Part shown: piece after piece, positions 5,265-42,517 of the stretch
Layout: each line of letters opens with the position of its first letter
How positions within the stretch are numbered: position 1 is the first letter of the stretch
NCBI GenBank assembly: GCA_041740355.1
Contig: JBGSMD010000016.1
Coordinates: forward strand, 96,001-160,000
Length of the DNA: 64,000 nucleotides
Reading direction: 5' to 3'
Source of the DNA: Bdellovibrionota bacterium
GTDB lineage: Bacteria; Bdellovibrionota_C; UBA2361; CALJRW01
Program-made: the position numbers and the translations under genes
The notes under the pieces: model-generated
What the model saw: only the letters and a program-made list of their open reading frames with translations
Told to the model about the DNA's origin: nothing
The model's database searches: none

Positions 5265-6832
5265 TGACTGACCAAAGAATTCTGCTTGGTTGTAATACTG
5301 AAGGGCAACAGGTTTTCCTTAATTGCAAAATGGCGAATCGCCATGGATTAATTGCCGGTGCTACGGGGACTGGTAAAACTGTTACGTTGCAAGTTTTAGC
5401 AGAGGCATTTTCGGCCCTTGGTGTTCCAGTATTTACTGCTGACGTAAAAGGAGATTTGTCAGGCCTAGCTAAATCGGGAACTCTTAGTAACAAAATTCAA
5501 GAAAGAATTGAACAAATCAAATTAGAAAATTTTCAATTGCAATCCTCCCCCGTTATTTTTTGGGACTTATTTCAAAAGAATGGTCATCCCGTAAGAACTA
5601 CGATTTCGGAGTTGGGCCCATCACTCCTAGCTAGATTAATGGACTTAAATGATACCCAAGAAGGTATTCTTCAAATTGCTTTTAAGTACGCGGATGATCA
5701 AAATTTATTATTACTGGACTTAAAAGATCTGCAAGAATTATTAAGATGGCTTGCCGAGCATAGTGATGAAATTAAACTTAACTATGGCAATGTTCATCCA
5801 ACTTCAGTTGCCGCTATTCAAAGAGACCTGCTAGTTTTAGAACAAAATGGAGCGGTTAATTTTTTTGCTGAACCGGCATTAGATATTAAAGACTTATTGC
5901 GAAAAGATTTATCAGGTAAAGGAATTATCAACATCCTCGATGCCACAACCTTACTTCATGACGGACGGCTCTATTCAACTTTCTTGTTATGGTTATTATC
6001 TGAACTTTTTGAACACCTGCCCGAAATTGGAGATCAAGATCTACCAAAACTTGTCTTCTTCTTTGACGAAGCTCATTTGCTTTTTAATTCTGCACCAAAA
6101 GCTCTGCTAGAAAAGATTGAATTAGTAGTACGTTTAATTAGATCTAAAGGTGTTGGGATATATTTCATTACCCAAAACCCTAAAGATTTACCGGAAATGA
6201 TCTTAGCTCAACTTGGCAATCGTTTTCAGCATGCCTTGCGCGCCTATACTCCTGCGGAGCAAAAAGGGATTAGAGTAGCTGCGGAATCCTTTAGAGCAAA
6301 TCCAAAGTTTGAGACAGAAACTGCTATTACGAATTTACAAATTGGACAGGCACTTGTCTCCGTCTTAGATTTGCAAGGCGCGCCAACGATTGTAGAAAAG
6401 ACTTTAATCTGCCCTCCCAAGTCAAGACTAGGTACCATATCTCCAGAAGAGCGTGCCGAGCAGATAATGGCCTCCCCTTTTGTTGATAAATATTTAAAGA
6501 CCGAAGATCGCGAGTCAGCCTACGAAATCTTACGCGGCAAAATGGAAGAGATCGCAATTACTAAACCAGATCAGACTAAGGGACGCCCTAAAGATAGCAT
6601 TCTGGCTTCAAGTGGAAAATCATTTGTTCGCTCCATGGCTTCTACAATTGGACGAATTTTAGTTGGACTATTTGCTGGACTTCTTCTAAGTAAAGGAACA
6701 ACAAGTAAGAAAAAAACGACTTCAATTTCTGAACAAGTTACTCGCTCTGTTGGTACTAGTATTAAGCGAACTATTAGTAATCAAATTGGAAATCAAATTA
6801 GTCGAGGGATCCTCGGCTCGATTCTCAAATAA
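5264..6832 (+). CDS. HerA-like ATPase, DUF853/YjgR family
   Basis: MANRHGLIAGATGTGKT, DVKGDLSG, FFFDEAH and QLGNRFQHALRAYTP motifs. TAATG overlap with valS stop. Confidence 0.9.
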   Translation: MTDQRILLGCNTEGQQVFLNCKMANRHGLIAGATGTGKTVTLQVLAEAFSALGVPVFTADVKGDLSGLAKSGTLSNKIQERIEQIKLENFQLQSSPVIFWDLFQKNGHPVRTTISELGPSLLARLMDLNDTQEGILQIAFKYADDQNLLLLDLKDLQELLRWLAEHSDEIKLNYGNVHPTSVAAIQRDLLVLEQNGAVNFFAEPALDIKDLLRKDLSGKGIINILDATTLLHDGRLYSTFLLWLLSELFEHLPEIGDQDLPKLVFFFDEAHLLFNSAPKALLEKIELVVRLIRSKGVGIYFITQNPKDLPEMILAQLGNRFQHALRAYTPAEQKGIRVAAESFRANPKFETETAITNLQIGQALVSVLDLQGAPTIVEKTLICPPKSRLGTISPEERAEQIMASPFVDKYLKTEDRESAYEILRGKMEEIAITKPDQTKGRPKDSILASSGKSFVRSMASTIGRILVGLFAGLLLSKGTTSKKKTTSISEQVTRSVGTSIKRTISNQIGNQISRGILGSILK

Positions 6833-6853
6833 TTATTTGTTTTAAAGATTGAA

Positions 6854-7582: not shown

Positions 7583-7629
7583 AAGTCCAAAAAGTAATTT
7601 CCGTAGGGAATTACTTTTTGTCATAACTA
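7583..7629. repeat. Family-A palindromic repeat, short copy, between convergent surE and radC
   Basis: caaaaagtaatttcc-gta-gggaattactttttg followed by tcataacta; shared with the copies at about 15.2 kb and 24.3 kb. Confidence 0.75.
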
Positions 7630-7635
7630 GATACC

Positions 7636-8292
7636 TCAGGCAGACATACGCCCATCTTCAGCAAAACTATAAAAGCCTGTCTGAGCAAAGATGATATGAT
7701 CTAATAATTTGATTCCTAGTAAAGCTGCTGCTTCCTGTAATCTTTTGGTTACTTTTAAATCTTCGGGACTGGGCTGTAAATTACCAGAAGGATGATTATG
7801 TGCCACAATTAATGAGCAAGCTCGATCTACTAAAGGATCGGCAAAAACTTCACGAGGATGAACTTGAGTACAATTAACTAGTCCAATTGAAACCACTCGA
7901 ATCTCAATAATTTCATTTGCTCCGTTTAGACTGATACTTATAAAGTGTTCTTGTTTTTTATCAACGTAAATCATCAAATAAGGAATTAGATCACTAGCAG
8001 ACGATATTTTTTTGCCAAATTTGAGGGAATGCCTACGCCCTAATTCTAAAGATGCCATTAACTGACAAGCTTTAACTTTACTTATCTGGGTAATCGGTCG
8101 CAAATCTTCCAAGGATAGATCCTTATTCTTAAGTTTGATAATTGCTAAGATTTTTATAGCAACATCGCTAGACAATATTTGGCTTTTCCCTCCACCAATA
8201 ATCATCGAAATTAACTCTAGGTCACTTAGACTGTCTCCTCCATAATTAAGTAATTTTTCTCTGGTCAGCATAAATTGAGATTGATCGATCAA
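7636..8292 (-). CDS. radC: RadC family JAB-domain protein
   Basis: REKLL..G..SLSD.EL, VHPREVF and AHNHPSG...PS.ED...LLDHII motifs. Confidence 0.92.
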   Translation of the reverse strand: MIDQSQFMLTREKLLNYGGDSLSDLELISMIIGGGKSQILSSDVAIKILAIIKLKNKDLSLEDLRPITQISKVKACQLMASLELGRRHSLKFGKKISSASDLIPYLMIYVDKKQEHFISISLNGANEIIEIRVVSIGLVNCTQVHPREVFADPLVDRACSLIVAHNHPSGNLQPSPEDLKVTKRLQEAAALLGIKLLDHIIFAQTGFYSFAEDGRMSA

Positions 8293-29287: not shown

Positions 29288-30094
29288 ATGAATGACATAT
29301 TAAAATCTTCGGATCAACACCTATTAAGTAAACCTCTCTACCTTCTTAAGAACAAACAAAAATATATACCAGCCTTAAATAAAAATGTAGAAAAACTAAC
29401 TGCTTATCAATTTTTGAGTTCTCTTCGAGAATTTTCGGCAATCCCCTCACAAGAACTCCAAACACTCGCTGACTCTTGTCGCTTTGCAACATATACAGCT
29501 AATCAATTTATAAGATCAGAATGTGACGAAGAAAGTCTTTATGGATTTATTGTTGTCTCTGGTCGATTAGCACTATTTAAAAATTCCAATAGTGGCAAGG
29601 AATTGATTGTTGATATTTTACAAGTAGGTGATATTTTTGGACTACTATTAATGCTTGCGGCTGAAAGATTGCCGGAACAACTTTCAGTGCGCTCATTTCA
29701 GAAAGCAAAGTTATTGTTAGTTCCGCTCAAATGCTTTACTCGTCTGATCGAAGCTCATCCAATCCTCTTTAAGGAGTTTGTTGCTCACCTTTTAATTTCT
29801 TTACAATCTTCTTACAATTTATCCAGGGGACTAGCTCATGACAAAGTTAATGTTAGAATTGCCACAGTATTATTTAGCATGTCACTGAAAATTGCCAATT
29901 TAGGAATACCTAATAATTTATTATCATTTAATTTGACCAGAAAACAACTTGCAAACTTAACTGGAGCTACAACTGAAACTGCGATTAGAGTTACAAGAAT
30001 GATGCAAAATGATGGGCTAATAGATATTAGTTGCCCAGGAGTAATTAAGGTTGTAAATCCTCAAGCACTTTTGAAAATTGTTGAAGATTTATAA
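29288..30094 (+). CDS. Crp/Fnr-family transcriptional regulator
   Basis: cNMP-binding barrel (SGKELIVDILQVGDIFG) and HTH LTRKQLANLTGATTETAIRV. Confidence 0.9.
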   Translation: MNDILKSSDQHLLSKPLYLLKNKQKYIPALNKNVEKLTAYQFLSSLREFSAIPSQELQTLADSCRFATYTANQFIRSECDEESLYGFIVVSGRLALFKNSNSGKELIVDILQVGDIFGLLLMLAAERLPEQLSVRSFQKAKLLLVPLKCFTRLIEAHPILFKEFVAHLLISLQSSYNLSRGLAHDKVNVRIATVLFSMSLKIANLGIPNNLLSFNLTRKQLANLTGATTETAIRVTRMMQNDGLIDISCPGVIKVVNPQALLKIVEDL

Positions 30095-30301
30095 TTCTTT
30101 TAACATTAAAAATTCTAACAGTATGTATTAAAAGTTCTATTGGAGTTAGCTTGTAGTTATTTTATCCCAGCAGAGTTTTAATAAAATCCTATTTATTAAA
30201 ATAAAACTGTTGAATTGTTTTATTAATACCTAATTAGTATTTTAGGGAAAATCCCTTCTAAACCTATTCCAGTTGGACCAGACGGCCTGGCAAATTGAAT
30301 C

Positions 30302-30331
30302 CTTGTCCGCCGTAGCTTCAGCGAAGGTGGA
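30302..30331. repeat. Family-B REP-like GC-rich palindrome
   Basis: cttgtccgccgtagcttcagcgaaggtgga; related copies at 54808 and 59641. Confidence 0.75.
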
Positions 30332-30409
30332 ATCTACAGCAAAAGAGTAAGCGCAGATAAATACGTTTTACAAGCCGTCTGTATTACTAAATAGGTAACT
30401 GTTCTGTGA

Positions 30410-30643
30410 CTATCTGCGACGGTCTTCTTCGCGACCAATTAGGCCTCCACCAACAGCGCCAGCAGCACCACCGATCACAGTTCCTCCAACCCCTGGGGAT
30501 ATTACATTACCAACCACAGCCCCAGTTCCACCACCAATTACGGCACCTTTTTCTTTGTTATTTAACTTTCTCCAAGTTGTACAGCCTGAGACCATTGCAA
30601 GAATTGTCAGACAGCATATAAATACAATAATTTTTCTTTTCAT
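30410..30643 (-). CDS. Glycine-zipper lipoprotein (OsmB/YMGG-like)
   Basis: Lipobox VSGC; GAVIGGGTGAVVG...GGAAGAVGGGLIG. Confidence 0.85.
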   Translation of the reverse strand: MKRKIIVFICCLTILAMVSGCTTWRKLNNKEKGAVIGGGTGAVVGNVISPGVGGTVIGGAAGAVGGGLIGREEDRRR

Positions 30644-30920
30644 AATAAATACCCTTAATATTAGATAAGTAAAAAATTCTACTTAATGCTAAGGTTTGAC
30701 AGTATGATCTGGATCAGGCAAATAATGTCAGCGCTAGAATGGATAACGATTCCCCTATGTTGCATCTTTCGTTAAAGTTATGTCGGGCAAGTCGTCGAGA
30801 TAAAAAACTTCATAATATCAGAATAAATTTTTTACAAATACCGTCTGGGCCACTTCTTGATCGGTTTTAAAATATAAAGATTCTGACTGGTATAAAATTT
30901 ATTATTTATAGTATTATAAA

Positions 30921-31008
30921 ACTATGACAAAAAGTAATTTCCGATATTAAAATGTTATTTTTGTTATAAAATATGATTATATTACCCTTCCATGGGGATA
31001 TTAGCCCC
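30921..31008. repeat. Degenerate family-A repeat
   Basis: actatgacaaaaagtaatttccgatattaaaa...tttttgttata...ggggata; resembles the reverse complement of 58324-58420. Confidence 0.5.
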
Positions 31009-31086
31009 CAACAATTAATTTCCTAAGAAAATTACTTGTTGAACTTACTATTAGTCAATTTTAACTCTAATAATAATAAAGTATTT

Positions 31087-31689
31087 ATGAATAAAGTACT
31101 CCTTGGATTAATAATCCTTATATTAACTTCTTGTTCTTCCAAAGACGCAAATCTTCTAACCGATCACAATCCCCCAAAAGGCTTTAAAAAAATTGCCGGT
31201 GATGTTTACTTACAATCAGAGACTCCAGAGGTCTTAAAAAACTATACAGCATTCCATATCAATCCCATTATAATTTATAGTAACGATAAGGGCAGACTTG
31301 TTGTTCCGACTCAAATTGAAGTCGATCGTTTAGCTAAATTGTTTCGTGACAAATTAATTCGAGAGTTGGGTTCTAGCTATACTGGATTTGACCACCCGGC
31401 ACCTCATGTCGCAATTATTGATATTAAGATAGTTGACCTTTGGACCTCACGCGCAATTGAAGCACTGCGGCCCGGATTAATTTTCCCGAATAATCTAAGT
31501 GGTGGTGCCACTATTGAAGCAACTTTTTTTGATTCTAAAAGTCGTGAAATAATTGCGACAGTCTGGGATTCTCGTCCCGGCGATAGGACTGGATTCTTTA
31601 GTGGTCTTACTAAATGGAAATCAACAGAAGCCGCCTTTGATGAATGGACCCAGCTATTAAAAAAGAGCATTAAGCCAAGCCATTACTAA
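31087..31689 (+). CDS. DUF3313-like lipoprotein
   Basis: Lipobox LTSC; GGATIEATFFDSKS...W...AFDEW. ATG 31087 preferred. Confidence 0.7.
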   Translation: MNKVLLGLIILILTSCSSKDANLLTDHNPPKGFKKIAGDVYLQSETPEVLKNYTAFHINPIIIYSNDKGRLVVPTQIEVDRLAKLFRDKLIRELGSSYTGFDHPAPHVAIIDIKIVDLWTSRAIEALRPGLIFPNNLSGGATIEATFFDSKSREIIATVWDSRPGDRTGFFSGLTKWKSTEAAFDEWTQLLKKSIKPSHY

Positions 31690-31874
31690 TAAAATCATAT
31701 TTCAAATAGGTCTTGCTATCAGTGAATGATTCAATCATCGTAAATATGAAAGCGAGACTAAAAAATATCTATGACATTATTTACTGCCTGCTTCGCTAAG
31801 AATAAATTTGAATTATATAAAAATACATTTCCAGTTAATGTTTTGCCATCCGAAGAAGCTTCAAAAACTAAGTG

Positions 31875-32523
31875 CTAACCAGCAAAAAGATCCGAAGTTA
31901 AAATAGTTTCAAAGGAAAGTGCACCTGCTTCTGTAATAACTAATTTAACAGCTCCTGCTATTGGATCATCTCTCTCAAGGATCACTGAAAAAGTTGTTTT
32001 ATGGATATTTAATGGCAAAACAATTTGATCGGTCAAAGCAGTCGAAACTAAACCAGATGTAAAGACAAGAGTAAAAACGAGTCGTCCATTTGTTGGATTG
32101 ATCACATTCCGCATCTTCATTTCACCATCACCAAAAGGAATATTATCAGGCCGAATCTTAATAACATAAGTACCAAAATATTCACCATCAAGCAGATCCC
32201 ATACTGGACTTACCAAAGTAGATTTGGCACAAGCAATTCCATATGATTTTAATTTTTTTATAATCAGCTAAAGTTGTTTGGAACTTAGCAAGTAAAACTT
32301 TATATCTAGGAGTTCTTTTCCCTTCTTTTAGTCCAGAAATTTTAGATTTAGCTTGTTCTATTTTACTATTCATATTTAACTTGAACTTTGCTTAGCGAAC
32401 AACCTTAGCTCGAGGACTCAAAATCTACAGATCATTACAGTCATAGTTTTTAGCAATCGAAATTGCTGGTATTTCAGCGGATACTTGAATAGATAAAAAG
32501 TATCTTGATAATATTATTTTCAT
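31875..32523 (-). pseudogene. Disrupted exported protein gene
   Basis: Track ORFs 32188-32373 and 31875-32216 join if one base is removed from the T7 run at 32253-32259. The upstream frame continues through two in-frame stops towards an ATG at 32523 with a signal-peptide-like start. Confidence 0.5.
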
Positions 32524-32705
32524 ATTTAACTCCAAACTCTTTATCTGCAATTATCAAATCAAGTTAAAATTTAAAACTTTCTACGAGGACATGGCTTACG
32601 TTAATTAGTCAGATTATTAAATGCTTTATTAGCTAACCCTATTAATTACAATATAATATGATCATTTGCTTAAGAAAATATTTTTGGTAAAACTCTAATA
32701 TAAAT

Positions 32706-32888
32706 ATGGAGAATAAAATATCAGAAGGTCCTACAACAATACTTACAATTAGCATATCAAAAGAGGGAGCAGAAAAGCTACAAGAACCAGGCTCTTTGGA
32801 AAAGCTTAATTTAATACTAGCTGAAGCAAATCTGCCTCCTGTTATATCCATTCGATCTGCAGAAAAAGCGGCAACCGATTCTAATTAA
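32706..32888 (+). CDS. Small hypothetical protein
   Basis: 60-aa ATG ORF with protein-like composition; convergent with the RT operon. Confidence 0.4.
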   Translation: MENKISEGPTTILTISISKEGAEKLQEPGSLEKLNLILAEANLPPVISIRSAEKAATDSN

Positions 32889-32945
32889 ATCAGTTTTCTA
32901 TCTATCAAGTTAACATTTTTACACTAAAAAAGTGAAACGCTCATG

Positions 32946-35288
32946 TTATCCCTGTTTTAATCCAATATAACGACGAAATCTTGGAACTTCACAGCGAAAC
33001 AATTCGCTACTATTAAGCGCAAGTTTTTTGCTTTCATAAATTGCGTTTGGATTTTGTTGAAATTGCAATAATCTCTTGGAAATTAATTGATAATCTGTGA
33101 AAGAAACATTTAATAATTTATTTGGGCATTGAAAATAAGCTTCTACTGTCCAATATTCAATGGCAAACGCTAAGGAATACAAAAAACTTAGCTGCCTAGC
33201 GTTCATTCTTTTTAGATGAGCGACTATTATTATATCCCCCATTCTAGAAAATACTACAAAGCGAGAGTTGTTTGGCACAAACAAAGTGTTCCGTCTAGTA
33301 TCAATTAATTTTTGATATACATCCCGAGCTTTTGATAGTTTTAACTTACCAATAGTTGCCAAATTCCCCTTTTTATCCAAGTAGATAAAATCTGTCTGCT
33401 GCTTAAATTTCGTTTCAGTTTTAATTTTAATAAGATTAACCAATTCTTCGATACTGAGTTTGTGTAATTTGGCATGCTTTAACTCTTGATAGCAGCGCTC
33501 TTCATGGAGCATTAAAAAAATACTCTCCATTAGTCTAATAGACTTTTTATCTGCACCGATCAGTCGAAATTGGCCTTTTACTTTTAGCAAGTCAACCTGT
33601 AGATCCTTTTGAAAATCTATTTTCATAACGAAACGAATTAAACCGGAAAGCTGAAATTGTAAATTTGCTATACCTAAATCACTATTTGCTGGAAACGTGA
33701 TCAACAATACTCCCGGAAAGATTTCAGTTTGCCAGGTTAAGGAATCACTAATCCGCTGAATGGATCTGCCAATGTAATTTGAATAGTAACTTTTAGTGTA
33801 TGATTTATCTAAAAAAATTATGGCAAATTCAAGTGGCTGATTGCTTGCGAGCGAGGCACGCGTGGCGGCTAACCAAGCTTTTAAACTAAGGGATTTAGTT
33901 CTTTGGGAAACTTGTTGCCGATAGATATTTAGCAATAAGCTCCGGCTAAAATCAATCCGTAATAGTACAATTAAAGAAGCCCCAATGATAATAACACTAT
34001 CTAATAAAATAATTCCTTGAATATTAGAGTTTGCTATATAGATTAAATAATACTGCAAAGGAATTGTAAAAAGTAAAAAATAAACTAACATAAATCTCTG
34101 GAACTGTATCTCCGTTTTAGTTACTTCAATTATCTTATAGCTTGTTTCAAAAAATGTTTTGGCTACAATAGCAATCAAAACTAAAACGAAGTAATTTAGT
34201 AAAACACTGGAACTATAACCAACCCAATAGGGAAATTTTACATAAAGTAGTGTTAAGATCGACAAGGTCAATCCTAAAAAAATTAATGTGTAAACAATCG
34301 TCCGTTTTGCATATTGATAGGCCTGCTCTAAGTGTCCTTCCTTTAAAGCAAGGTGAATATCCATTGCCAATGACCTAGATACTTGGATGGCAAAGCCAGA
34401 GAGAAAACTAATTGAAAAATATAAGAAAATATATTGTCGCCAATAGTAATTACTATGTAAATATAAGAAGCAACCGAGGCAAAGTAAATAAAGATAGTAG
34501 GCTACTGGTAATGAATAAATCTGGCGAAATACCCTAGATCGCAATAACCCTGTAAGCAAGTATCGTAACTGAATAGGCTTCCGATAGGTATAAAAATTAA
34601 ACCTCAAAGAGTCTAATGCAATTTTGATATGATAATTAATATATAATAAGTTTCCTATTAGATAGCCAAGTATATAACTATACTCCCCCATAAAGCGATA
34701 ACAACTTAGCATTAAAATGATGGGGATAATTCGATAAAAAGTAGAGATTAGAAACTCCTTTTTTAATCGTCTTTGAGTATAGGAAATTGCCCATAAAGCT
34801 AAACTTAAACTCTCTAAAGGCAAGATTATTAAGGTTGTGAAAGCAATCAGCAAAGACGATCGATCCATTTCTAAAAATATTGCTAAAGCAATAATTCCAA
34901 GACTATTTATTAAACCCAGCACTATACTAAAGTTAATAGCCAAGTAATAATAGTCATTGCATTTTTCTTGATTAAATTTCTTTTGAAATTCAACTAACTT
35001 TATCCTAAAAAACTGCATGCCTCCTTTTAGTAAACCTTTCAAACAAAAACTCAAAAAAATAATTATTGCTACTAGGCTAAAGAAGTTAGAGCGAAATAGA
35101 AAATAAATTATTGCCATCTCAAAGATTACAATCAGTTTAAAAACTAATCTCGATAGAAGTGGAAAACGAATTCTATATATTAAATATCTTAAAAAAGTAA
35201 AAAAACTCTGACCTTCCTTCCAACGTCTTAAGCTCTCGAACCTTTGCTTTTCTATTTTTGCTCTTAGGATGAACTTTTGAATTAACAT
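32946..35288 (-). CDS. RT-associated multi-pass membrane protein (MATE/Wzx/MurJ-like N-terminal half plus soluble C-terminal domain)
   Basis: About 12 hydrophobic segments in the first ~450 aa, then a soluble ~330 aa. Its ATG overlaps the RT stop (TAATG at 35286-35290). Confidence 0.75.
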   Translation of the reverse strand: MLIQKFILRAKIEKQRFESLRRWKEGQSFFTFLRYLIYRIRFPLLSRLVFKLIVIFEMAIIYFLFRSNFFSLVAIIIFLSFCLKGLLKGGMQFFRIKLVEFQKKFNQEKCNDYYYLAINFSIVLGLINSLGIIALAIFLEMDRSSLLIAFTTLIILPLESLSLALWAISYTQRRLKKEFLISTFYRIIPIILMLSCYRFMGEYSYILGYLIGNLLYINYHIKIALDSLRFNFYTYRKPIQLRYLLTGLLRSRVFRQIYSLPVAYYLYLLCLGCFLYLHSNYYWRQYIFLYFSISFLSGFAIQVSRSLAMDIHLALKEGHLEQAYQYAKRTIVYTLIFLGLTLSILTLLYVKFPYWVGYSSSVLLNYFVLVLIAIVAKTFFETSYKIIEVTKTEIQFQRFMLVYFLLFTIPLQYYLIYIANSNIQGIILLDSVIIIGASLIVLLRIDFSRSLLLNIYRQQVSQRTKSLSLKAWLAATRASLASNQPLEFAIIFLDKSYTKSYYSNYIGRSIQRISDSLTWQTEIFPGVLLITFPANSDLGIANLQFQLSGLIRFVMKIDFQKDLQVDLLKVKGQFRLIGADKKSIRLMESIFLMLHEERCYQELKHAKLHKLSIEELVNLIKIKTETKFKQQTDFIYLDKKGNLATIGKLKLSKARDVYQKLIDTRRNTLFVPNNSRFVVFSRMGDIIIVAHLKRMNARQLSFLYSLAFAIEYWTVEAYFQCPNKLLNVSFTDYQLISKRLLQFQQNPNAIYESKKLALNSSELFRCEVPRFRRYIGLKQG

Positions 35289-36592
35289 TAATTTAATTGA
35301 TAATCTTTGTTGCGTTTCAATCTATTTCGCATATCTAATACGGAAACTAAACCTAGCTGACGAATCTTTCGATAGGTACAATACTTAAAAACCCGATCAT
35401 GAGAAGTTCCATAGATGAAACGCAAGGAAACTTTTGCCAACCACTTATCAAAAGATTTAAATGAGCTGCGATCATCACAGTGCATGATTAAATCATAAAA
35501 ATAATGATCTCTTCCAAGGTTTGTCAGATAATAATTCAAAGAGTTAATTATCGCTTGTAACAAATTAATCTTTGAGGAACAAAGTTTTTTATTTATGAAA
35601 TATGAATGTCTGGCAATCTCTAATATCTCTTGCTTTATGAAGTTGATCCGTCGATCTGATAAAAATAGTCCCCCCTCGGAGTTAAGCTTAAACCCTAGAT
35701 ATAAAAGTGGTTTATTTTTTATTACGCTACTAAAAACCCCTCTTTCCAATTTCTTTTCATTTAACTTGAGATTCAATTCAGAAAGTTGTTTTTCCAAGAA
35801 AAGACAGACATTGCTCACTACATTCTCTGATTCATGAGCAATTAAAAGATCGTCACCATAGCGACTATAAAAAACTTTGAAGTTATCTCTAATATCTCGA
35901 TCAACATTAACTAAGTAAAAATTTGCAATAAAACATGAGATCGAACAACCAGTTGGAACACTTGCAGATAAAAGAGTAATTTCTGATTGATTGGAAGTTC
36001 TAAATTGCGGACCTACTATCTCATTTAATAATTCCCAAAAATAATTTTCTTGTTTCGGGATTGCTAGTTTAAGCTTCGCAATTAAGATCTGTGGATTAAT
36101 ATGATCAAAATAGCTTTTGATATCACATTTCGCATAATATAAATCAACATCTGATTCCTTAATAAATTGTCGGCAATTCTTAATAGCTGAAATGCTAGAA
36201 AAACCTTTGCGATATGAATATAATGAATCTAAGTAATATTTATCTTGCAAAGCTCCTTGAAGAATATTTGCCAATGTAGCTTCAAAAATCTTATCGATCC
36301 AATTGCTTAGATAAATGGTTCTTTCCTTATTGCTTATTTTAACAATGATTTGCTTCTTAATTTCGGGGAAATATTGCTTTTGTTTGATTGCTTTACAGAT
36401 TTCATCAATAATTAAACCACGATATAATAAGCACCATTTTAAACTTACTCCTTCAGCCAAAGGACTGGAATCCAATTTTTCTTTATCTCCCATGCTTCTT
36501 TGATGAAGCTTAAAAAATACATCCTCATAGTGATCGCGACGAGCTAGTTCTTTTATTATATTTAATTTAGATAGTTTAATTGTTTTTATCAC
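35288..36592 (-). CDS. Stand-alone group II-like reverse transcriptase
   Basis: KERTIYL..WIDKI, YSYRKGFS, KCDIKSYFDHI, VPTGCSISCFIANFYL..VD, YSRYGDDLLI, LKLNEKK and YLGF motifs. Maturase/thumb-like C-terminus (IINSLNYYL...FKSFDKWL). GTG start. Confidence 0.93.
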   Translation of the reverse strand: MIKTIKLSKLNIIKELARRDHYEDVFFKLHQRSMGDKEKLDSSPLAEGVSLKWCLLYRGLIIDEICKAIKQKQYFPEIKKQIIVKISNKERTIYLSNWIDKIFEATLANILQGALQDKYYLDSLYSYRKGFSSISAIKNCRQFIKESDVDLYYAKCDIKSYFDHINPQILIAKLKLAIPKQENYFWELLNEIVGPQFRTSNQSEITLLSASVPTGCSISCFIANFYLVNVDRDIRDNFKVFYSRYGDDLLIAHESENVVSNVCLFLEKQLSELNLKLNEKKLERGVFSSVIKNKPLLYLGFKLNSEGGLFLSDRRINFIKQEILEIARHSYFINKKLCSSKINLLQAIINSLNYYLTNLGRDHYFYDLIMHCDDRSSFKSFDKWLAKVSLRFIYGTSHDRVFKYCTYRKIRQLGLVSVLDMRNRLKRNKDYQLN

Positions 36593-36614
36593 TAAAAGCT
36601 TGTTTGCAAGGAGT

Positions 36615-36830
36615 TAAAGTGGGGTTAGGGGAAATCGAAAGATTGTGTTGGAACAACTAAGTTTTTAAGTTAAGTAGTTAGCGAAGCTAAGTAGTTAGCT
36701 CAAAGAGTGAGTTATTTCAATATAGTCTGGATGTCTTATGAGTTGCAGGCTCCTCCCGTAGCACTTAATTGCAACTCCCGAGACATAAATGGGAAGGTGG
36801 TATTACCACAACACCCTAACCCTATTTCAG
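36615..36830 (-). ncRNA. Candidate RT-associated structured ncRNA
   Basis: Closing inverted repeat gggttaggg (36622-36630)/ccctaaccc (36814-36822). Long hairpin atgtct/agacat plus gagttgca/tgcaactc (36731-36786). Small hairpins gtggtattaccac, aatcgaaagatt, gttggaacaac and ttagcgaagctaa. 12-nt direct repeat. Higher GC than the flanks. Confidence 0.7.
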
Positions 36831-36932
36831 ATTAACAGATTTTACCCTATTAATAAATTATGTTTTTAGATTAAGATGAAGAAAATACTTTAATCAATTA
36901 TGACGATCCTCCGATTTCTACTTTGATTTTTC

Positions 36933-38669
36933 ATGCGCATTATAGCTTTTCTCTTTTTCTTATTTATCCCACTAAGTGCGAGCTGCACAGAGGAGTTCAA
37001 TCTTCAACTATCAGAATTTATTGCTAATGCCACATGTTCCGACCTAGTACCCAAGAGCATCGAAGTTAAATTATCTGCGGGAGGTTTTATTTTTAGCATT
37101 CCAAGTCTTTATGATACCCCAATTATCTCTTCAACTCTGGTCTGTTACCAGCTACTCACATACCTCCATGATTACACAGAAGCATCTCCAGAATCACAAA
37201 TACTAACCTTTGAAGTTAGGGAATCTTCCGGAGAATTCCAATTCCTAGAGAAAAGCGGCCTTATAGATAGTCTTTGTTTAGATGCCGGACTATGTCAAAG
37301 GGGCTTTTTTGATTATTTTCGCTTGAATCAGAATTTGCTCAGTTGCCACGGTGCCAGAACTTTGGCTCTGTCCTTAGAAAGAGCTCTACCTAAGTTCTAT
37401 CGGACCAAGACAAAGATCGTCAAAAAAATGGGTCTTGAAATTCATCCCTTTGTTCCATTTATTCAAAAACTTGAGGAATACTTGAACGATCCTCAAGTTA
37501 AGAATATTTATGCTTCAACAATGAGCCTAGGGGATAAGAGCCTAGTAGAAGTTATTCCAAAACTTAATACTAAATTTTTAAATTTGAGCTTTGATGCCGG
37601 ATTGATGTTAATGAAAAAGCAAGAAAATTTATTTAATCAATTAATCGGTCAATTTTCAAATTTCCAAATAGCCCCAATGACTAGTGGCCAATATTATAAT
37701 AATATTTACCACTTAAAATTTATTACAAGTCCTGAAAATAACAAGTCAGTTGTTTCCTCTATGAATCTTTCTACTCCTGAGAGTACAACTTACATCGACT
37801 TTTTATATTTATTTGATGATTCAGAAATACAGCATGAATTAACTGCGATAACAAAATTAAATAAGCAGCGCTCTTGTCAAACCGAAGAAGATTTAAAGTG
37901 CCTTCTGCGTTTTGCAAACTCAAACTCCAATATTAGTAGTGAGTTTAATTCTTTATTGAAATCTTCCTGTCTAAATCAGGACCCTGTTGAAGATACCAGA
38001 TCAGGCTACTTTGCTTACAATGATGACACTGACTTAGAGCAATATATAATCAAATTTATAAACTCAGCAGAAAAAGAAATTATTCTAATGAGCTATAAAC
38101 TCTCTAATCCAAGCATACTTTCTGCGCTTCGCAAACGTCAAGCTGCTGGACTTAAGGTCTATCTGATTACTGCCTATAAGCCATATTACAATCCAAAGTT
38201 GTTTGATCATTTATATTATGCTGGGAAAGACGATCTTTCGATGATTCCCTATCCACACATGAAATTAATGATTAGCGATCGAGAACAAATGCTCTTTGGT
38301 TCAGGAAATTTTAGCGTCAATGCACTAACTCAATCAGCAGAGATGTTTGGAACTACCACAGATCAAAATGCTATCCAAAAAGCCCTTGCATATGCAGCTA
38401 CATTTGTTCAGGACTTTAACCCCAAACTTTCTAAAAACTTTTACAATCAATCCGTGGAAGATCCATTTTATTCCGTTAATTATTTAAAACAAAATTCATC
38501 GCTTCAAGTTGAATATACAGAGCCTAGCGGAATTAACTGGATGCCATATTACCGAAAGTTTAATCAGCAGGGAAAAGATATTTTAAATCAGTGCAAGATT
38601 AATAATCTTCACTTCGTTTCTAGCCAAAACTTTCAACAATGCTTAGACTTAATTAATAAAAAGTTTTAA
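36933..38669 (+). CDS. Exported phospholipase D-superfamily protein with two HKD-type motifs
   Basis: Signal peptide; HLKFITSP...SSMNLS and HMKLMISD...GSGNFS; INSAEKEI.LMSY. Confidence 0.82.
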   Translation: MRIIAFLFFLFIPLSASCTEEFNLQLSEFIANATCSDLVPKSIEVKLSAGGFIFSIPSLYDTPIISSTLVCYQLLTYLHDYTEASPESQILTFEVRESSGEFQFLEKSGLIDSLCLDAGLCQRGFFDYFRLNQNLLSCHGARTLALSLERALPKFYRTKTKIVKKMGLEIHPFVPFIQKLEEYLNDPQVKNIYASTMSLGDKSLVEVIPKLNTKFLNLSFDAGLMLMKKQENLFNQLIGQFSNFQIAPMTSGQYYNNIYHLKFITSPENNKSVVSSMNLSTPESTTYIDFLYLFDDSEIQHELTAITKLNKQRSCQTEEDLKCLLRFANSNSNISSEFNSLLKSSCLNQDPVEDTRSGYFAYNDDTDLEQYIIKFINSAEKEIILMSYKLSNPSILSALRKRQAAGLKVYLITAYKPYYNPKLFDHLYYAGKDDLSMIPYPHMKLMISDREQMLFGSGNFSVNALTQSAEMFGTTTDQNAIQKALAYAATFVQDFNPKLSKNFYNQSVEDPFYSVNYLKQNSSLQVEYTEPSGINWMPYYRKFNQQGKDILNQCKINNLHFVSSQNFQQCLDLINKKF

Positions 38670-39091
38670 CAAGGAGATCGGGAACTTCTTGGACTTCTAA
38701 TGGGGCAAAGGCCACCTGTCATACTATTCCACCAGTAAGCCTTAGACTTTCCACTACCTTTTAGTGAATAAGCAACAGCAGTATATGAATTGTTATTATT
38801 ATTGGGGTCCGAGCTGACACTCATGTCAACATCCTGACCTAAGGTGAATCCAGGCAAAACATTATTACAATTGCTACTCAAGCAACTTGCATAACCAGAG
38901 ACTCCCTTGCCGACACTATCAGCATAGTAAGTTTCCTGAGCCGAGGCTACCTGTTGTAAAGTTGCGACTGAGGTAGTATCAGAAGCAAGCTTCCGGAATT
39001 CAAACATGTTTTCCATTGCGATAGATGCAATTATCGCCAAAATGGCGATGGTAACTAACAACTCAACTAAGGTAAAACCTCTACAGCTCAT
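38666..39091 (-). CDS. Type IV pilin-like protein
   Basis: GFTLVELLVTIAILAIIASIA prepilin motif; AQETYYAD. Confidence 0.88.
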   Translation of the reverse strand: MSCRGFTLVELLVTIAILAIIASIAMENMFEFRKLASDTTSVATLQQVASAQETYYADSVGKGVSGYASCLSSNCNNVLPGFTLGQDVDMSVSSDPNNNNNSYTAVAYSLKGSGKSKAYWWNSMTGGLCPIRSPRSSRSPC

Positions 39092-39476
39092 ATTACAAAA
39101 TTTAAAAAGATAATTTACTAGATATCTAGGTGTAGATACTTAACTGTAAATGTTAAGCACACATAACTCGAACATAATCATCAGATACATTAATTTTTGA
39201 TTTAAATAATTTTTTATTATTTTTCAAAAAAATGATTCCTAACCCTAATACACTCCAATGATCAGTTACAGTTGAGTAGGTTTAATACTAAAGTTGCTAT
39301 ACTTTAGTACTATTATACCAAAACTAACAATATATTATATATAATTAGTGATAATAATATTATTATTAAGAATTGGGTATTATTACAATAATAATAAAAT
39401 TGTGATTATAAAATGATTTCCGCAACAAAGATGCTTTTAATCAATTATTAGAAGTAAGCTATCAATCCTTACTTAC

Positions 39477-40082
39477 TTAAGATTTATAATCTTTAGGCTT
39501 TACCTTTTGGGCAGTATGTTGGACAATTACCTTTCGTACCTCCTCTAAAATTGTAGATGTTGCATTGCGTTTGGTCGATCTAATCCTACCAATTTTTTGA
39601 AATTCCTCCGATCTTTGACTAAGATTCTCATCGATTAAATCGATATGGGATTGAACCTGATCTCGCCAAGATTTTAATTTAGTTTTCGCAGCGGGACAAA
39701 ATTTAATAATACTTGGAGCAGCAACCCCAAAACCATCTTTCTCAACAACAAAGTCAAGAATTTCCTTGGTCTCTTCGAATTTATTTTTGAGAACTAGCTG
39801 ATCACAAACTTTTAATACTTCTGTTAAAATTTCTGCAATTTCACAGAGTTCTTTAAATCCACTGTGCAACAATGTTGAAAAATAATCCCCATTAAATTGC
39901 TCGAGTAACTTTACTACCTCAGTAATTGAATTAACTTCATGGCGCAGCTCCTCTAAATCCTCAGCTATTTGAGGTGGAACAACTAAAGAATCTTCTCCAG
40001 CTTCTCGGTACTTTAAATAGCAATAAGCAGCAATTGACAAGAAAAGTCCAAAGCCACAAAAGAATGCTAAATAAACTAACAT
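39477..40082 (-). CDS. Hypothetical membrane-anchored helical protein
   Basis: N-terminal TM segment; 201 aa. Confidence 0.65.
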   Translation of the reverse strand: MLVYLAFFCGFGLFLSIAAYCYLKYREAGEDSLVVPPQIAEDLEELRHEVNSITEVVKLLEQFNGDYFSTLLHSGFKELCEIAEILTEVLKVCDQLVLKNKFEETKEILDFVVEKDGFGVAAPSIIKFCPAAKTKLKSWRDQVQSHIDLIDENLSQRSEEFQKIGRIRSTKRNATSTILEEVRKVIVQHTAQKVKPKDYKS

Positions 40083-40302
40083 CTTAAATATCGTTTAAAG
40101 TATTGCATCAGGGATAATAAAGAATTTAATCCTTAAGTGCGAAGCAAGTTGAAATTATTCCATTTCGCTAATTACCTAACTAGCTCCGACTATTTTTATA
40201 ATAGCATATCAGGCCTGAATCTACGACTATATATATTCTTAAATTTATCCTGAATATTAGCCAAGTTTTGGGTTCTAAGTTCGATTAAATTATAAGGCTC
40301 GC

Positions 40303-40698
40303 TTAAGTTTTAGCTCTTATAAAAGAGACCTGAAAGGTTTCCTTAGTAACAGCCTGATAATATGTCCCAACGAGTCGATCCTGAGCGGCATCATAGAGCA
40401 GATTATAATTAGAACCTGGATAATTAACATCTCGCAGTTCAATCATTATCTTAATATTTTCACCGTCTTGAGTTACATTTGCTTCTGATACATTAATTGA
40501 TTGTGGATTAAAATATAAAGCTTTCAAATTTCCATTTGTAGCAATATCTTCAATTGCGATAAGATAATTGCTATCAGTGCGTTTCCAGCGACCTTTAATT
40601 CTCTCGAGCAAAGAAGCATTATCAAGAGCAAATAAATCGCAACTAAGAGTTAACAATATAAATAATAAAGTAATTAGTAATTTTAAAGATTTATTCAT
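40303..40698 (-). CDS. Conserved hypothetical exported protein
   Basis: Signal peptide; GRWKR.D..Y.I...YFNP.SINVS...ELRDVNYPGS.Y.L.YD...DRLVG.YYQA. Confidence 0.7.
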   Translation of the reverse strand: MNKSLKLLITLLFILLTLSCDLFALDNASLLERIKGRWKRTDSNYLIAIEDIATNGNLKALYFNPQSINVSEANVTQDGENIKIMIELRDVNYPGSNYNLLYDAAQDRLVGTYYQAVTKETFQVSFIRAKT

Positions 40699-40762
40699 AA
40701 TTAGCTCCAAGTTTACGATCTATAAAAATATTAACTTTAAAATATCTAATATTTTCTTATTC

Positions 40763-40986
40763 TTAATATGGACTAGTAAAAGTTTCAATTACTACCTGAT
40801 GAATTTTTCTAGTATATTTTTATTTTTAGTATAACTTAGAATTACAGGAGTATTTTCGTCCGAACTAAGATGCGCGAATTTATCAATACCAAATGTATTG
40901 CCATTGGCATTTTAGATTCTTCCTTCAGCTACATTATTGTCATCAATATAAATTTTTGCAATACCACTAAGCAATCCTCCCCCATT
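40763..40986 (-). pseudogene. Relic of an arylsulfatase C-terminal domain
   Basis: Own translation: NGGGLLSGIAKIYIDDNNVAEGRI*NANGNTFGIDKFAHLSSDENTPVILSY, then a frameshift to KYTRKIHQVVIETF. Matches the GGGxGxGG..LYVDG..VAEGRI...F..DE...G.DE.TPV..Y..FTGKI..V.I pattern. Confidence 0.6.
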
Positions 40987-41038
40987 CCTAGATAGCTAAA
41001 AGATATATTAAGTGAAAAACATTTTTATTTTACTCAAG

Positions 41039-42517
41039 CTATCGATAATCAACTTTGTAAGGACATATCTTAAACCCAGGATTTTTTTTTAGTGCAAAAG
41101 TTATACGACGCATTAACTTCGGGTCCTGAAGACTCTCTTCTTTGTATGGTCCAATAATTAAGCGTTTTCTATCAGAACCTAAGTTCTGCTTCAACAACAT
41201 ATCTTCAATAAATCTTTCTCGATCTATTACAGGATCTGGCGTATGCCAGATTAAAAATACTAAGCTTTGCTCAGGGCATGTTTTAATCATGTTGTGCTTA
41301 GCATTCGACATCATCTGGACACGAAACTGGTAGCGTTCTAAAGTCTGGGGAATTGAGGTGTATAAATATACTAGCTGGCAAGTGATTAATATTAGAGCAA
41401 GAACTTTTTGCCATTTTCCAGATATCCCTAGCCAGCTAGTTAGTTGTTGAAGAACCGGCCAACCAAGCGAACAGATAAGCAAAAAAGATCCCCAAAAAGC
41501 AAACCAATAGCGGGAGCCGTATTGTGGCCAACCATCTTTAGAGTGAAAGGTATAGATAAAAACAATTAAAAAAATATGTAAGAATAAAACATAAAGATAT
41601 TTCGTTCGAAACACCTTATACAGTCCCAACATAAACAACAGAAAAGCTGGAAGTCCAATCAATAAAAGGAATTGATCGTAAAATAAGAAATAAAAGAAAC
41701 GATTAAAATTAGAAAAGAACTGTCGAAAGACATCTTGCCATTTTCCCAATATATGAAGCTCCGTATTTATATGTGATCCATATGTAGTTAGAGAAAACTT
41801 TCCCAACTGATAACTATTGTAAGAAATCACTAGGCCTATCCCAATTATTGCTAGAGTCGTAGTTATCAGTATTGGCACCAAACTTTTACGGACTCCATGA
41901 TAATGAACCAATCCAATCAAAATTGGAAATAAAAAGCAGGCAGTTTCAACAGGTCGTGTCAGGAAACCAAGGGCTGCGAATATTCCAATATAAAAAAGAT
42001 TCTTCTTTTGGCTTTGTTTGAGATATTCATAGAATGCCCAAATACCGGCAGTCGATATAAATAAAATTAATGGTTGAGCAAATAGAGATGCTGCGTATCC
42101 AAAGCTATAAGGTACAAAAGCGCCAAGTAATATTATTATTGCGGCATTTTTTTCATTAGTTAAATCCTTTGATAGGCGATATACAAAAAACAAGCTGAGA
42201 CACATTAGTATTGGATTTAAAACGAATGCTAATCCCAGCTTAATCGCACCAGCTAAAAGCAATGAAAATCCAGGGAAATATTTGGAGAATAAAATACCTC
42301 TTTCATAAACAATGTGTGGTTCAATAAATATATAGCTAAAGTTATTTGCTTTTATATAAAAGGACCCTTCTGAAAAAATCTTGGCCTGTATCCAGTAGCC
42401 AAATTCATCAAAACTATTGGGACGCATTTCAAAGATACAGCAGGAGATAAAAATGTAAAAAACTCCAGCGGCAATGATTACCAAGTATGTCATCTTGTCA
42501 AAAGTAGCTGGTTTCAT
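41039..42517 (-). CDS. GT-C (ArnT/PMT-like) membrane glycosyltransferase
   Basis: DEFGYWIQAKIFSEG, KYFPG, FLTRP and YGSRYW motifs; many TMs. Confidence 0.75.
   Translation of the reverse strand: MKPATFDKMTYLVIIAAGVFYIFISCCIFEMRPNSFDEFGYWIQAKIFSEGSFYIKANNFSYIFIEPHIVYERGILFSKYFPGFSLLLAGAIKLGLAFVLNPILMCLSLFFVYRLSKDLTNEKNAAIIILLGAFVPYSFGYAASLFAQPLILFISTAGIWAFYEYLKQSQKKNLFYIGIFAALGFLTRPVETACFLFPILIGLVHYHGVRKSLVPILITTTLAIIGIGLVISYNSYQLGKFSLTTYGSHINTELHILGKWQDVFRQFFSNFNRFFYFLFYDQFLLLIGLPAFLLFMLGLYKVFRTKYLYVLFLHIFLIVFIYTFHSKDGWPQYGSRYWFAFWGSFLLICSLGWPVLQQLTSWLGISGKWQKVLALILITCQLVYLYTSIPQTLERYQFRVQMMSNAKHNMIKTCPEQSLVFLIWHTPDPVIDRERFIEDMLLKQNLGSDRKRLIIGPYKEESLQDPKLMRRITFALKKNPGFKICPYKVDYR

Follow-up and report, generated by a model that had tools for sequence, protein, structure and literature searches.

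Domesticated bacterial reverse transcriptases (RTs) are the subject of a fast-moving field that includes the retrons, DRT2/9/10 and a proposed origin of telomerase. One of these systems, DRT10 (UG17), is described in the available part of a preprint (bioRxiv 10.1101/2025.10.16.682844) as the combination of an RT, a SLATT membrane protein and a 137-nt non-coding RNA (ncRNA). DRT10 is the closest described counterpart of the module treated here, which is located in 64,000 nt of DNA from a member of the Bdellovibrionota (assembly GCA_041740355.1, contig JBGSMD010000016.1, positions 96,001 to 160,000; this whole stretch is referred to as “the window”). The module features an RT, a polytopic membrane protein (MEM), a protein of the PLD/HKD family (PLD) and, in the largest clade of related RTs, a structured RNA upstream of the RT gene. 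It is a genuine conserved RT system that is undescribed in the literature and the family libraries searched. It is also wider than the original prediction, made from the window alone, had described: an extra protein (PLD) belongs to it, and it occurs in dozens of distant bacteria.

As far as the available part of the preprint goes, the module shares with DRT10 a class-2-like RT, an ncRNA with a long closing stem and side hairpins, and a co-evolving membrane protein. The partner in DRT10 is a small SLATT protein, whereas that of the module is a ca. 750-aa protein with a predicted 12-helix MOP fold and a cytoplasmic tail. The SLATT partner required by DRT10/UG17 is lacking; the window partner has no PADLOC or Pfam match and is modeled as a MOP fold. 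The gene order is RNA-RT-MEM in the module compared to RNA-SLATT-RT in DRT10. Unlike DRT10, the module has an additional extracytoplasmic-type protein (PLD), and no link to a defence island or a mobile element was found for it. The DRT10 ncRNA is described as the template of a protein-primed, tandem-repeat cDNA.

Other described systems share single features with the module. UG26, with 35 members of which nine have a Vsr-like protein, supplied the best-scoring named model for the window RT (112 bits, nearly the whole profile) and has an RT of similar size; however, the main text of the source (Mestre et al. 2022, PMC9226505) describes UG26 as stand-alone or accompanied by the Vsr-like endonuclease and gives it no membrane, PLD or phospholipase partner. 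UG5-large (an RT-nitrilase with a transmembrane protein) and the retrons with two-helix transmembrane effectors resemble the module in that the RT needs a membrane protein (same source, main text), but their transmembrane partners are small and they carry a nitrilase domain or retron motifs, neither of which is present in the window module. Residues 1 to ca. 460 of MEM have the predicted fold of the MOP transporters (MATE/NorM, MurJ, Wzx). In contrast to those transporters, MEM belongs to none of their sequence families, bears an extra soluble tail of ca. 320 aa, and is always encoded beside an RT. No literature on an RT with a MOP, MATE, flippase or PLD partner was found, although a cluster of this kind could be listed in the supplement to Mestre et al. 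2022; the available part of Simon & Zimmerly 2008 mentions no RT with a MOP-type or PLD partner.

The RT gene occupies positions 35288-36592 on the minus strand; it has a GTG start, encodes 434 aa and matches RVT_1 at 1.2e-27. The YGDD motif is located at residue 245 and a PTG motif at residue 213. The candidate catalytic aspartates (D157, D247 and D248) are invariant across the alignment of the RT family, and the enzyme is thus predicted to be catalytically intact and of the group-II-like, or UG class-2-like, kind. Its stop codon overlaps the ATG of MEM by one base (TAATG at 35288). The hallmarks of retron RTs are the NAxxH and VTG motifs, and the window RT has neither; its score against the retron St85 model (56.5 bits, cutoff 235) is below membership. 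No group II intron RNA or any other Rfam family was detected at the gathering score anywhere in the 64-kb window, nor was a tRNA. A search for a template/variable repeat (TR/VR) pair in 30000-41000 returned only AT-rich repeats of 25-36 nt with 66-78% identity, and the identification of the RT as part of a diversity-generating retroelement (DGR) was rejected on these grounds. Judged by these features, the RT is not that of a retron, a group II intron or a DGR.

The same RT was compared with the PADLOC and NCBIfam models. The top PADLOC model was RT_UG26 (5.7e-33, 112.2 bits, profile positions 44-389 of 398), for which PADLOC supplies no curated cutoff. A generic RT model scored level with it (104.6 bits), and similar values were obtained with the group II maturase model TIGR04416 (102.9 bits, below its cutoff of 300) and a CRISPR-associated RT model (88.6 bits). 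UG17 was among the better PADLOC matches (89 bits), and all seven aligned family RTs matched the UG26, Drt9, UG17 and UG4 models. A hidden Markov model (HMM) built from the RT family itself gave 144-323 bits to members in other phyla. Sequence matches in the PDB were weak and mixed, with group II RTs among them. Going by these scores, the RT does not clearly fit any of the defined RT groups. The original prediction of an intact RT with YGDD and PTG, devoid of NAxxH and VTG, accordingly agrees with the 434-aa reading frame, its RVT_1 match and the motif check. The exclusion of a group II intron likewise stands, given the silence of Rfam on intron RNA and the overlap of the RT stop with the next gene, as does that of a DGR. 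A PADLOC comparison had been proposed as a check, and in it the RT scored as a member of no PADLOC or NCBIfam RT group.

MEM (32946-35288, minus strand, 780 aa) was modeled with AlphaFold (pLDDT 81.9). In the model, ca. 12 long helices precede a soluble alpha/beta tail. The N-terminal domain (residues 1 to ca. 460, positions 33909-35288) contains the ca. 12 transmembrane helices, and in Foldseek comparisons the model matched MATE, MurJ and Wzx structures with E-values from 2.3e-6 to 1e-3 and TM-scores of 0.5-0.68 (0.60-0.68 when normalised to the target, over ca. 460 columns). There were 40 PDB matches at E ≤ 0.001, and those listed were MATE/MurJ/Wzx structures except for one “protein A”. The modeled N-terminal domain is thus of the MOP-superfamily (flippase/MATE-like) fold. 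At the level of sequence, MEM had no Pfam, PADLOC or NCBIfam match; none of the Pfam families (MatE, MurJ and Polysacc_synt included) was above its cutoff for the window protein, its two paralogues or eight further homologues, and an Atlas lead for MEM scored only 0.76. Residues E57, R174, P189 and D310 are invariant in the alignment of the MEM family. The original prediction had called a 780-aa multi-pass protein of about 12 helices with a soluble tail, resembling a flippase or transporter and overlapping the RT stop at its ATG; the model, the fold comparison and the TAATG junction bear out each of these points.

The C-terminal soluble region of MEM (residues ca. 461-780, positions 32946-33908) is composed of two putative alpha/beta sub-domains. 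It was also modeled alone (pLDDT 73.1), and this model had no Foldseek match at E ≤ 0.001. In VIA comparisons, residues 465-578 aligned to GGDEF-like domains with Z of 8.3-6.8 over ca. 110 residues, and the second sub-domain to GAF/PHY-like domains with Z of ca. 7; both values are at the background level for unmatched models. A GG(D/E)EF motif was not seen by reading at the expected hairpin of the tail.

The conservation of the RT-MEM pair was assessed by a breadth scan of one genome per species (185,579 species) with an RT motif taken from the family alignment; a word-indexed protein search had given few RT relatives. The scan produced 101 pattern matches, and 67 loci were confirmed, three of which are the same contigs as loci L014, L015 and L018. 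The loci span Bdellovibrionota, Myxococcota, Actinomycetota, Legionellales/Coxiellaceae, Francisellaceae, Rickettsiales, Planctomycetota and Saccharibacteria, a taxon list that rests on this single motif scan. An iterated HMM placed a MEM homologue directly 3′ of the RT in 51 of the 67. In eight Bdellovibrionota loci, mostly of Bacteriovoracaceae, the position of MEM is filled by a related protein of ca. 560-800 aa; seven of these eight variants are polytopic, and an hhalign comparison related them to MEM (probability 94.4%, E 8.8e-8); the protein of L036 joined the seven by BLAST clustering. The gene for PLD follows on the same strand in seven of the variant loci and is convergent in L036. 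In total, MEM or a MEM-related protein is found directly after the RT in 59 of the 67 RT-homologous loci. Of the remaining eight, one is truncated where its contig ends, two are from Saccharibacteria and have a shorter RT, and five gave matches that were weak or cut. The linkage of the membrane gene in homologues, which the original prediction had named as a check, is thus upheld, and the RT and MEM are a conserved and translationally coupled pair.

Two observations concern the arrangement of RT genes in relatives. In L039 (1569-10025), two RT-MEM modules lie in tandem, each with an RNA copy, and a gene for a Cys-rich protein is located between them. In L050 (6752-8287), the RT is split into two open reading frames (ORFs) of 304 and 177 aa, and this is probably a broken copy.

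The third gene of the window module is located at 36933-38669 on the plus strand. It encodes a 578-aa protein with a hydrophobic, signal-like N-terminal segment and a PLDc_2 match (5.1e-16, 59.2 bits, cutoff 27) that places it in the PLD/HKD family. In the window it is divergent from the RT gene, and the two share an intergenic region of 340 nt. The window's own genome also contains two RT paralogues (30-31% identity). Each is followed by a MEM homologue (737 and 744 aa) and then by a PLD protein (574 and 576 aa) that is 34-35% identical to the window ORF. The three copies match PLDc_2 at 2.4e-16 to 1.5e-15, all have hydrophobic N-termini, and the HMK...D...G.GN motif is readable in all three. 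MEM was present in six of the 124 genomes of the phylum, the window's own genome included. The five loci from the other genomes have RT, MEM and PLD in colinear order; one of them is truncated where its contig ends, and in L018 it took an HMM to identify the third gene (as L066). PLD homologues are colinear after RT-MEM in L004, L005, L014, L015, L016 and L017.

An exhaustive HMMER search with MEM among 1.84 billion representatives gave 25 other proteins at E ≤ 0.001, most of them 644-774 aa in length. One of the database proteins, P0031 (1316 aa), is a natural MEM-PLD fusion: its residues 730-1308 align to residues 12-571 of the window PLD (E 4e-53), and the joint falls at the signal-like hydrophobic segment. 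Judging by these linkages and the fusion, PLD belongs to the RT-MEM module as its third protein. The original prediction had also posited a three-part module; the RT and MEM were correctly paired in it, and the secreted, PLD-like protein was overlooked. Adjoining the PLD gene is a 141-aa ORF (38666-39091, minus strand), the N-terminus of which resembles what we take to be a prepilin-type leader followed by a hydrophobic helix.

A tree of the RT family was calculated with FastTree; it offers local support only and has several long branches. The window RT falls into clade A with L004, L005, L019, L020 and L016 (support 91). Clade B contains nine Bdellovibrionota rows, mostly Bacteriovoracaceae (support 99), and clade C contains 40 rows (support 96). 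Additional genes accompany the pair in particular lineages. A Cys-rich cluster with EGF_CA or MopE-like motifs is found in 18 loci, and in 17 of these the gene is located just upstream of the RT. A GH18 partner is present in L034 (Coxiellaceae), one with an FBA lectin domain in L042, and a cNMP-binding protein in L044 (Actinomycetes). With the exception of the cNMP-binding neighbour in Actinomycetota, the lineage-specific partners are, to judge from their domains, proteins of extracytoplasmic type.

Upstream of the RT gene, a short UGCG-loop hairpin with a covarying stem recurs in several loci. When eight loci were folded as single sequences, the structures had in common a long closing stem, one short hairpin, another hairpin bearing the UGCG stem-loop, and a variable one; most also had a U/C-rich stretch ahead of the 3′ strand of the closing stem. 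In 8 of 8 family RNAs, the RT-sense strand was the more stable. A first covariance model (R1), made from three sequences, was searched against both strands of 917 kb. Of its 33 matches at E ≤ 10, 28 were on the RT strand and clustered just upstream of RT genes. With the second-round model (R2), 27 loci yielded 30 matches, none of them off the RT strand; 25 of these end no more than ca. 100 nt from the RT start. The other five were two extra tandem copies (L073), two elements ca. 715 nt upstream (L044 and L071) and one element after MEM (L046). In an alignment of 29 sequences, 90.7% of the cells were paired compared to 58.9% in shuffles, and 38 of the 42 pairs had a compensatory change. The covariation score was 0.645, compared to 0.182 in shuffles (0 of 500 reached the observed value) and 0.07-0.12 with slid partners; an alignment of 15 sequences gave similar figures. 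Conservation of the upstream block exceeds that of the RT coding sequence among the Coxiellaceae trio and within clade B (77-91% nucleotide identity vs. 63-82% in most pairs). The RNA is not represented in Rfam 15. Considering the covariation and the positions of the matches together, a ca. 135-nt RNA that closely precedes the RT is a true feature of the family in its largest RT clade.

Several points qualify these results. Both covariation alignments were fitted to the structure of the model, and the pairing figures are inflated by this. There are fewer than 100 nt upstream of the RT in 14 of 50 loci. A third model (R3) matched the Coxiellaceae element 44 nt before the RT (24.3 bits, E 0.068) and found nothing in other AT-rich loci; L004, L005, L016 and L020 were without a match. 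R3 was derived from GC-rich members, and it also misses the AT-rich L061 despite the hairpin motif at that locus.

The RNA elements of some relatives have unusual surroundings. Three tandem copies (76, 62 and 63 bits) precede a single RT gene in L073 (6047-6807). In L046, an RNA match (7614-7737) lies at the 3′ end of MEM and overlaps its last ca. 20 nt, and only 5 nt separate the RT of this locus from another gene ahead of it. In L034, a tRNA gene (6478-6551) is located ca. 125 nt upstream of the Coxiellaceae RNA element, with the RT starting near 6842, and the flanks of L051 and L058 resemble a tRNA 3′ end by reading. The tRNA sequences beside these three modules may mark an insertion site for islands.

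The window has a structured element of its own at 36608-36827, in which a long closing stem surrounds three hairpins. The plus strand of 36608-36827 folds with a minimum free energy (MFE) of -82.3 kcal/mol (z -7.75, matched by none of 200 shuffles), and the minus (RT) strand of 36620-36830 with an MFE of -54.6 (z -3.0, 3 of 200 shuffles as good). The plus-strand fold has 76 pairs, 10 of them G-U, and the minus-strand fold has 63 with 2 G-U. The 9-bp closing stem is not significant when considered alone: a long-range Watson-Crick stem of at least 9 bp occurred in 44 of 300 shuffles. The element is present as a single copy in the genome, and an origin as a miniature inverted-repeat transposable element (MITE) or another repeat was rejected for this reason. 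It is real and part of the locus. The original prediction of a structured non-coding region on the RT strand holds with regard to its existence and its distance of 30 nt from the RT; the assignment to the RT strand is doubtful, because the plus strand folds far better.

The strand of this element bears on its role. It could be a plus-strand leader or cis-regulator of the PLD gene, or a small RNA antisense to the 5′ end of the RT gene, and not a template for the RT; we regard this as a serious contender, with a probability somewhat short of even. The difference in stability between the strands and the greater number of G-U pairs on the plus strand argue for it, as does the preference of all eight folded family RNAs for the RT-sense strand, which is the reverse of that in the window. 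In the paralogue L005 and its orthologue L019, the closest pair in clade A (RTs 70.6% identical), there is no conservation upstream of the RT, where L019 has only 44 nt free. A conserved element of ca. 135 nt with a 10-bp closing stem is instead kept beside PLD in the sense of the operon: it is located directly after the PLD gene (L005 10516-10680, L019 11087-11255) and is 80.6% identical over the matched 160 nt, compared to 61-63% amino-acid identity for PLD. With filters off, R3 matched neither strand of 30000-42000, and its silence thus extends to the plus strand as well as the minus. The UNCG-loop hairpin motif was absent from the window locus, L004, L005, L016, L019 and L020, and BLAST of the window intergenic region against 19 other loci returned nothing. 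In favor of the RT strand are the order of the minus-strand hairpins (short, medium, long, then a U/C-rich stretch ahead of the 3′ closing strand), which mirrors that of the family RNA, and the 30-nt distance to the RT start, which is like that of the family RNAs. Moreover, promoter-like sites for the plus strand occur in the intergenic region only at 36832-36861, downstream of the element. On balance, the fold energies suggest that the window element is more likely on the strand opposite to the RT, and it may be unrelated to RT templating. The proposed check of homologues for an upstream RNA was positive for the largest RT clade; the family model, which derives from GC-rich members, does not recognise the window element.

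The explanation that we favor, to which we give about an even chance, is that of a conserved chromosomal module of RT, MEM, partner protein and RNA, in which an RNA-templated cDNA would control MEM. What was observed is the linkage of the genes, the modeled folds, the fusion of MEM to PLD and, in the largest RT clade, a covarying RNA. The RT would bind the structured RNA and copy part of it into cDNA. This cDNA, or a particle of RT, RNA and cDNA, might then act on the cytoplasmic MEM tail of ca. 320 aa and would control the action of the MOP-fold domain, with PLD presumably acting on the opposite side of the membrane. The templating and gating steps are inferred from the analogous DRT2/9/10 and retron systems.

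The competing explanations differ in what they make of the RT and of its partners. If the RT were a divergent member of a named UG/DRT group (UG26, UG17/DRT10 or UG28/DRT9) that had gained an accessory gene, the leading RT_UG26 score and the matches of all seven family RTs to UG26, Drt9, UG17 and UG4 would be accounted for. However, generic, maturase and CRISPR-associated RT models scored similarly, the family's own HMM recognised members across phyla with 144-323 bits, MEM matched no PADLOC model, and the partner described for UG26 is Vsr-like; we consider such a membership improbable. The resemblance of the RT to group II maturases, which is as great as that to any group, and the group II RTs among its PDB matches could also be read as signs of a group II intron in decay, of some other mobile retroelement or of an RT that lies beside a membrane gene by chance. 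This has very little to recommend it, given the absence of intron RNA detectable with Rfam in the window, the lack of room after the RT ORF, the conservation of the MEM partner in 59 of 67 loci, and the presence in the genome of only three divergent copies, none near-identical.

A different account retains the module and assigns it to export: the product of the RT would be DNA or a conjugate linked to DNA, which the MOP-fold protein would translocate across the inner membrane and the secreted partner would process or bind outside, with a role in the envelope, the matrix or the interaction with prey or host instead of immunity. The transporter or flippase fold of MEM is consistent with this account, as are the partners with extracytoplasmic-type domains (the signal-peptide PLD, EGF_CA/MopE-like repeats, GH18 and the FBA lectin) and the P0031 fusion, in which PLD comes after the signal-like hydrophobic segment. 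Most of the carriers belong to Bdellovibrionota, Myxococcota, Legionellales/Coxiellaceae, Francisellaceae and Rickettsiales, with Actinomycetota in addition; no defence genes lie beside the window copy, and no phage or plasmid copies were found in IMG/VR or PLSDB. On the other hand, no MOP-family protein is known to move nucleic acid, the list of carriers derives from one motif scan, and the Actinomycetota copies have a cNMP-binding neighbour in place of a secreted partner. We regard export as rather unlikely. The more specific proposal that RNA-templated DNA, or a DNA-linked conjugate, is sent via a MOP-fold exporter to the surface and processed there by PLD or another secreted partner is to us slightly less probable again; if true, there would be a secretion or envelope pathway fed by reverse transcription, mainly in predatory and host-associated bacteria.

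Anti-phage defence, which the original prediction had named as the likeliest role, is possible but found no support, and nothing spoke against it either. None of ten neighbouring ORFs scored as a member of a PADLOC defence family. PLD matched DrmC at 2.3e-17 in PADLOC, which looks like generic PLD similarity, and a weak TRIP13 match among the neighbouring ORFs (E 1.5e-4) looks like generic similarity of AAA+ ATPases. Relatives of the module were absent from the viral contigs of IMG/VR and the plasmids of PLSDB. In a synteny test for insertion, the flanks of the locus were scattered or unmatched in the congeneric genome G041. No RNA run was listed with the window stretch; four DNA runs, all of one study, contain it.

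Three items are new with the favored module of RT, MEM, partner and RNA: an RT clade apparently outside the named groups, a MOP-fold partner with a sensor-like tail, and a covarying RNA that is absent from Rfam. The partner type is widespread and is often accompanied by secreted proteins. The module offers a testable case of an RT product that might communicate with a transporter-like protein, and it could reveal functions of RT systems other than phage defence.

Elsewhere in the window, an intergenic stretch of ca. 140 nt (30913-31052) matches more than 10 places in G041 with 73-76% identity, which suggests a dispersed repeat. A motif of ca. 30 nt at 30300-30336 has several matches in the same genome with 88-97% identity, three of them close together on one contig.

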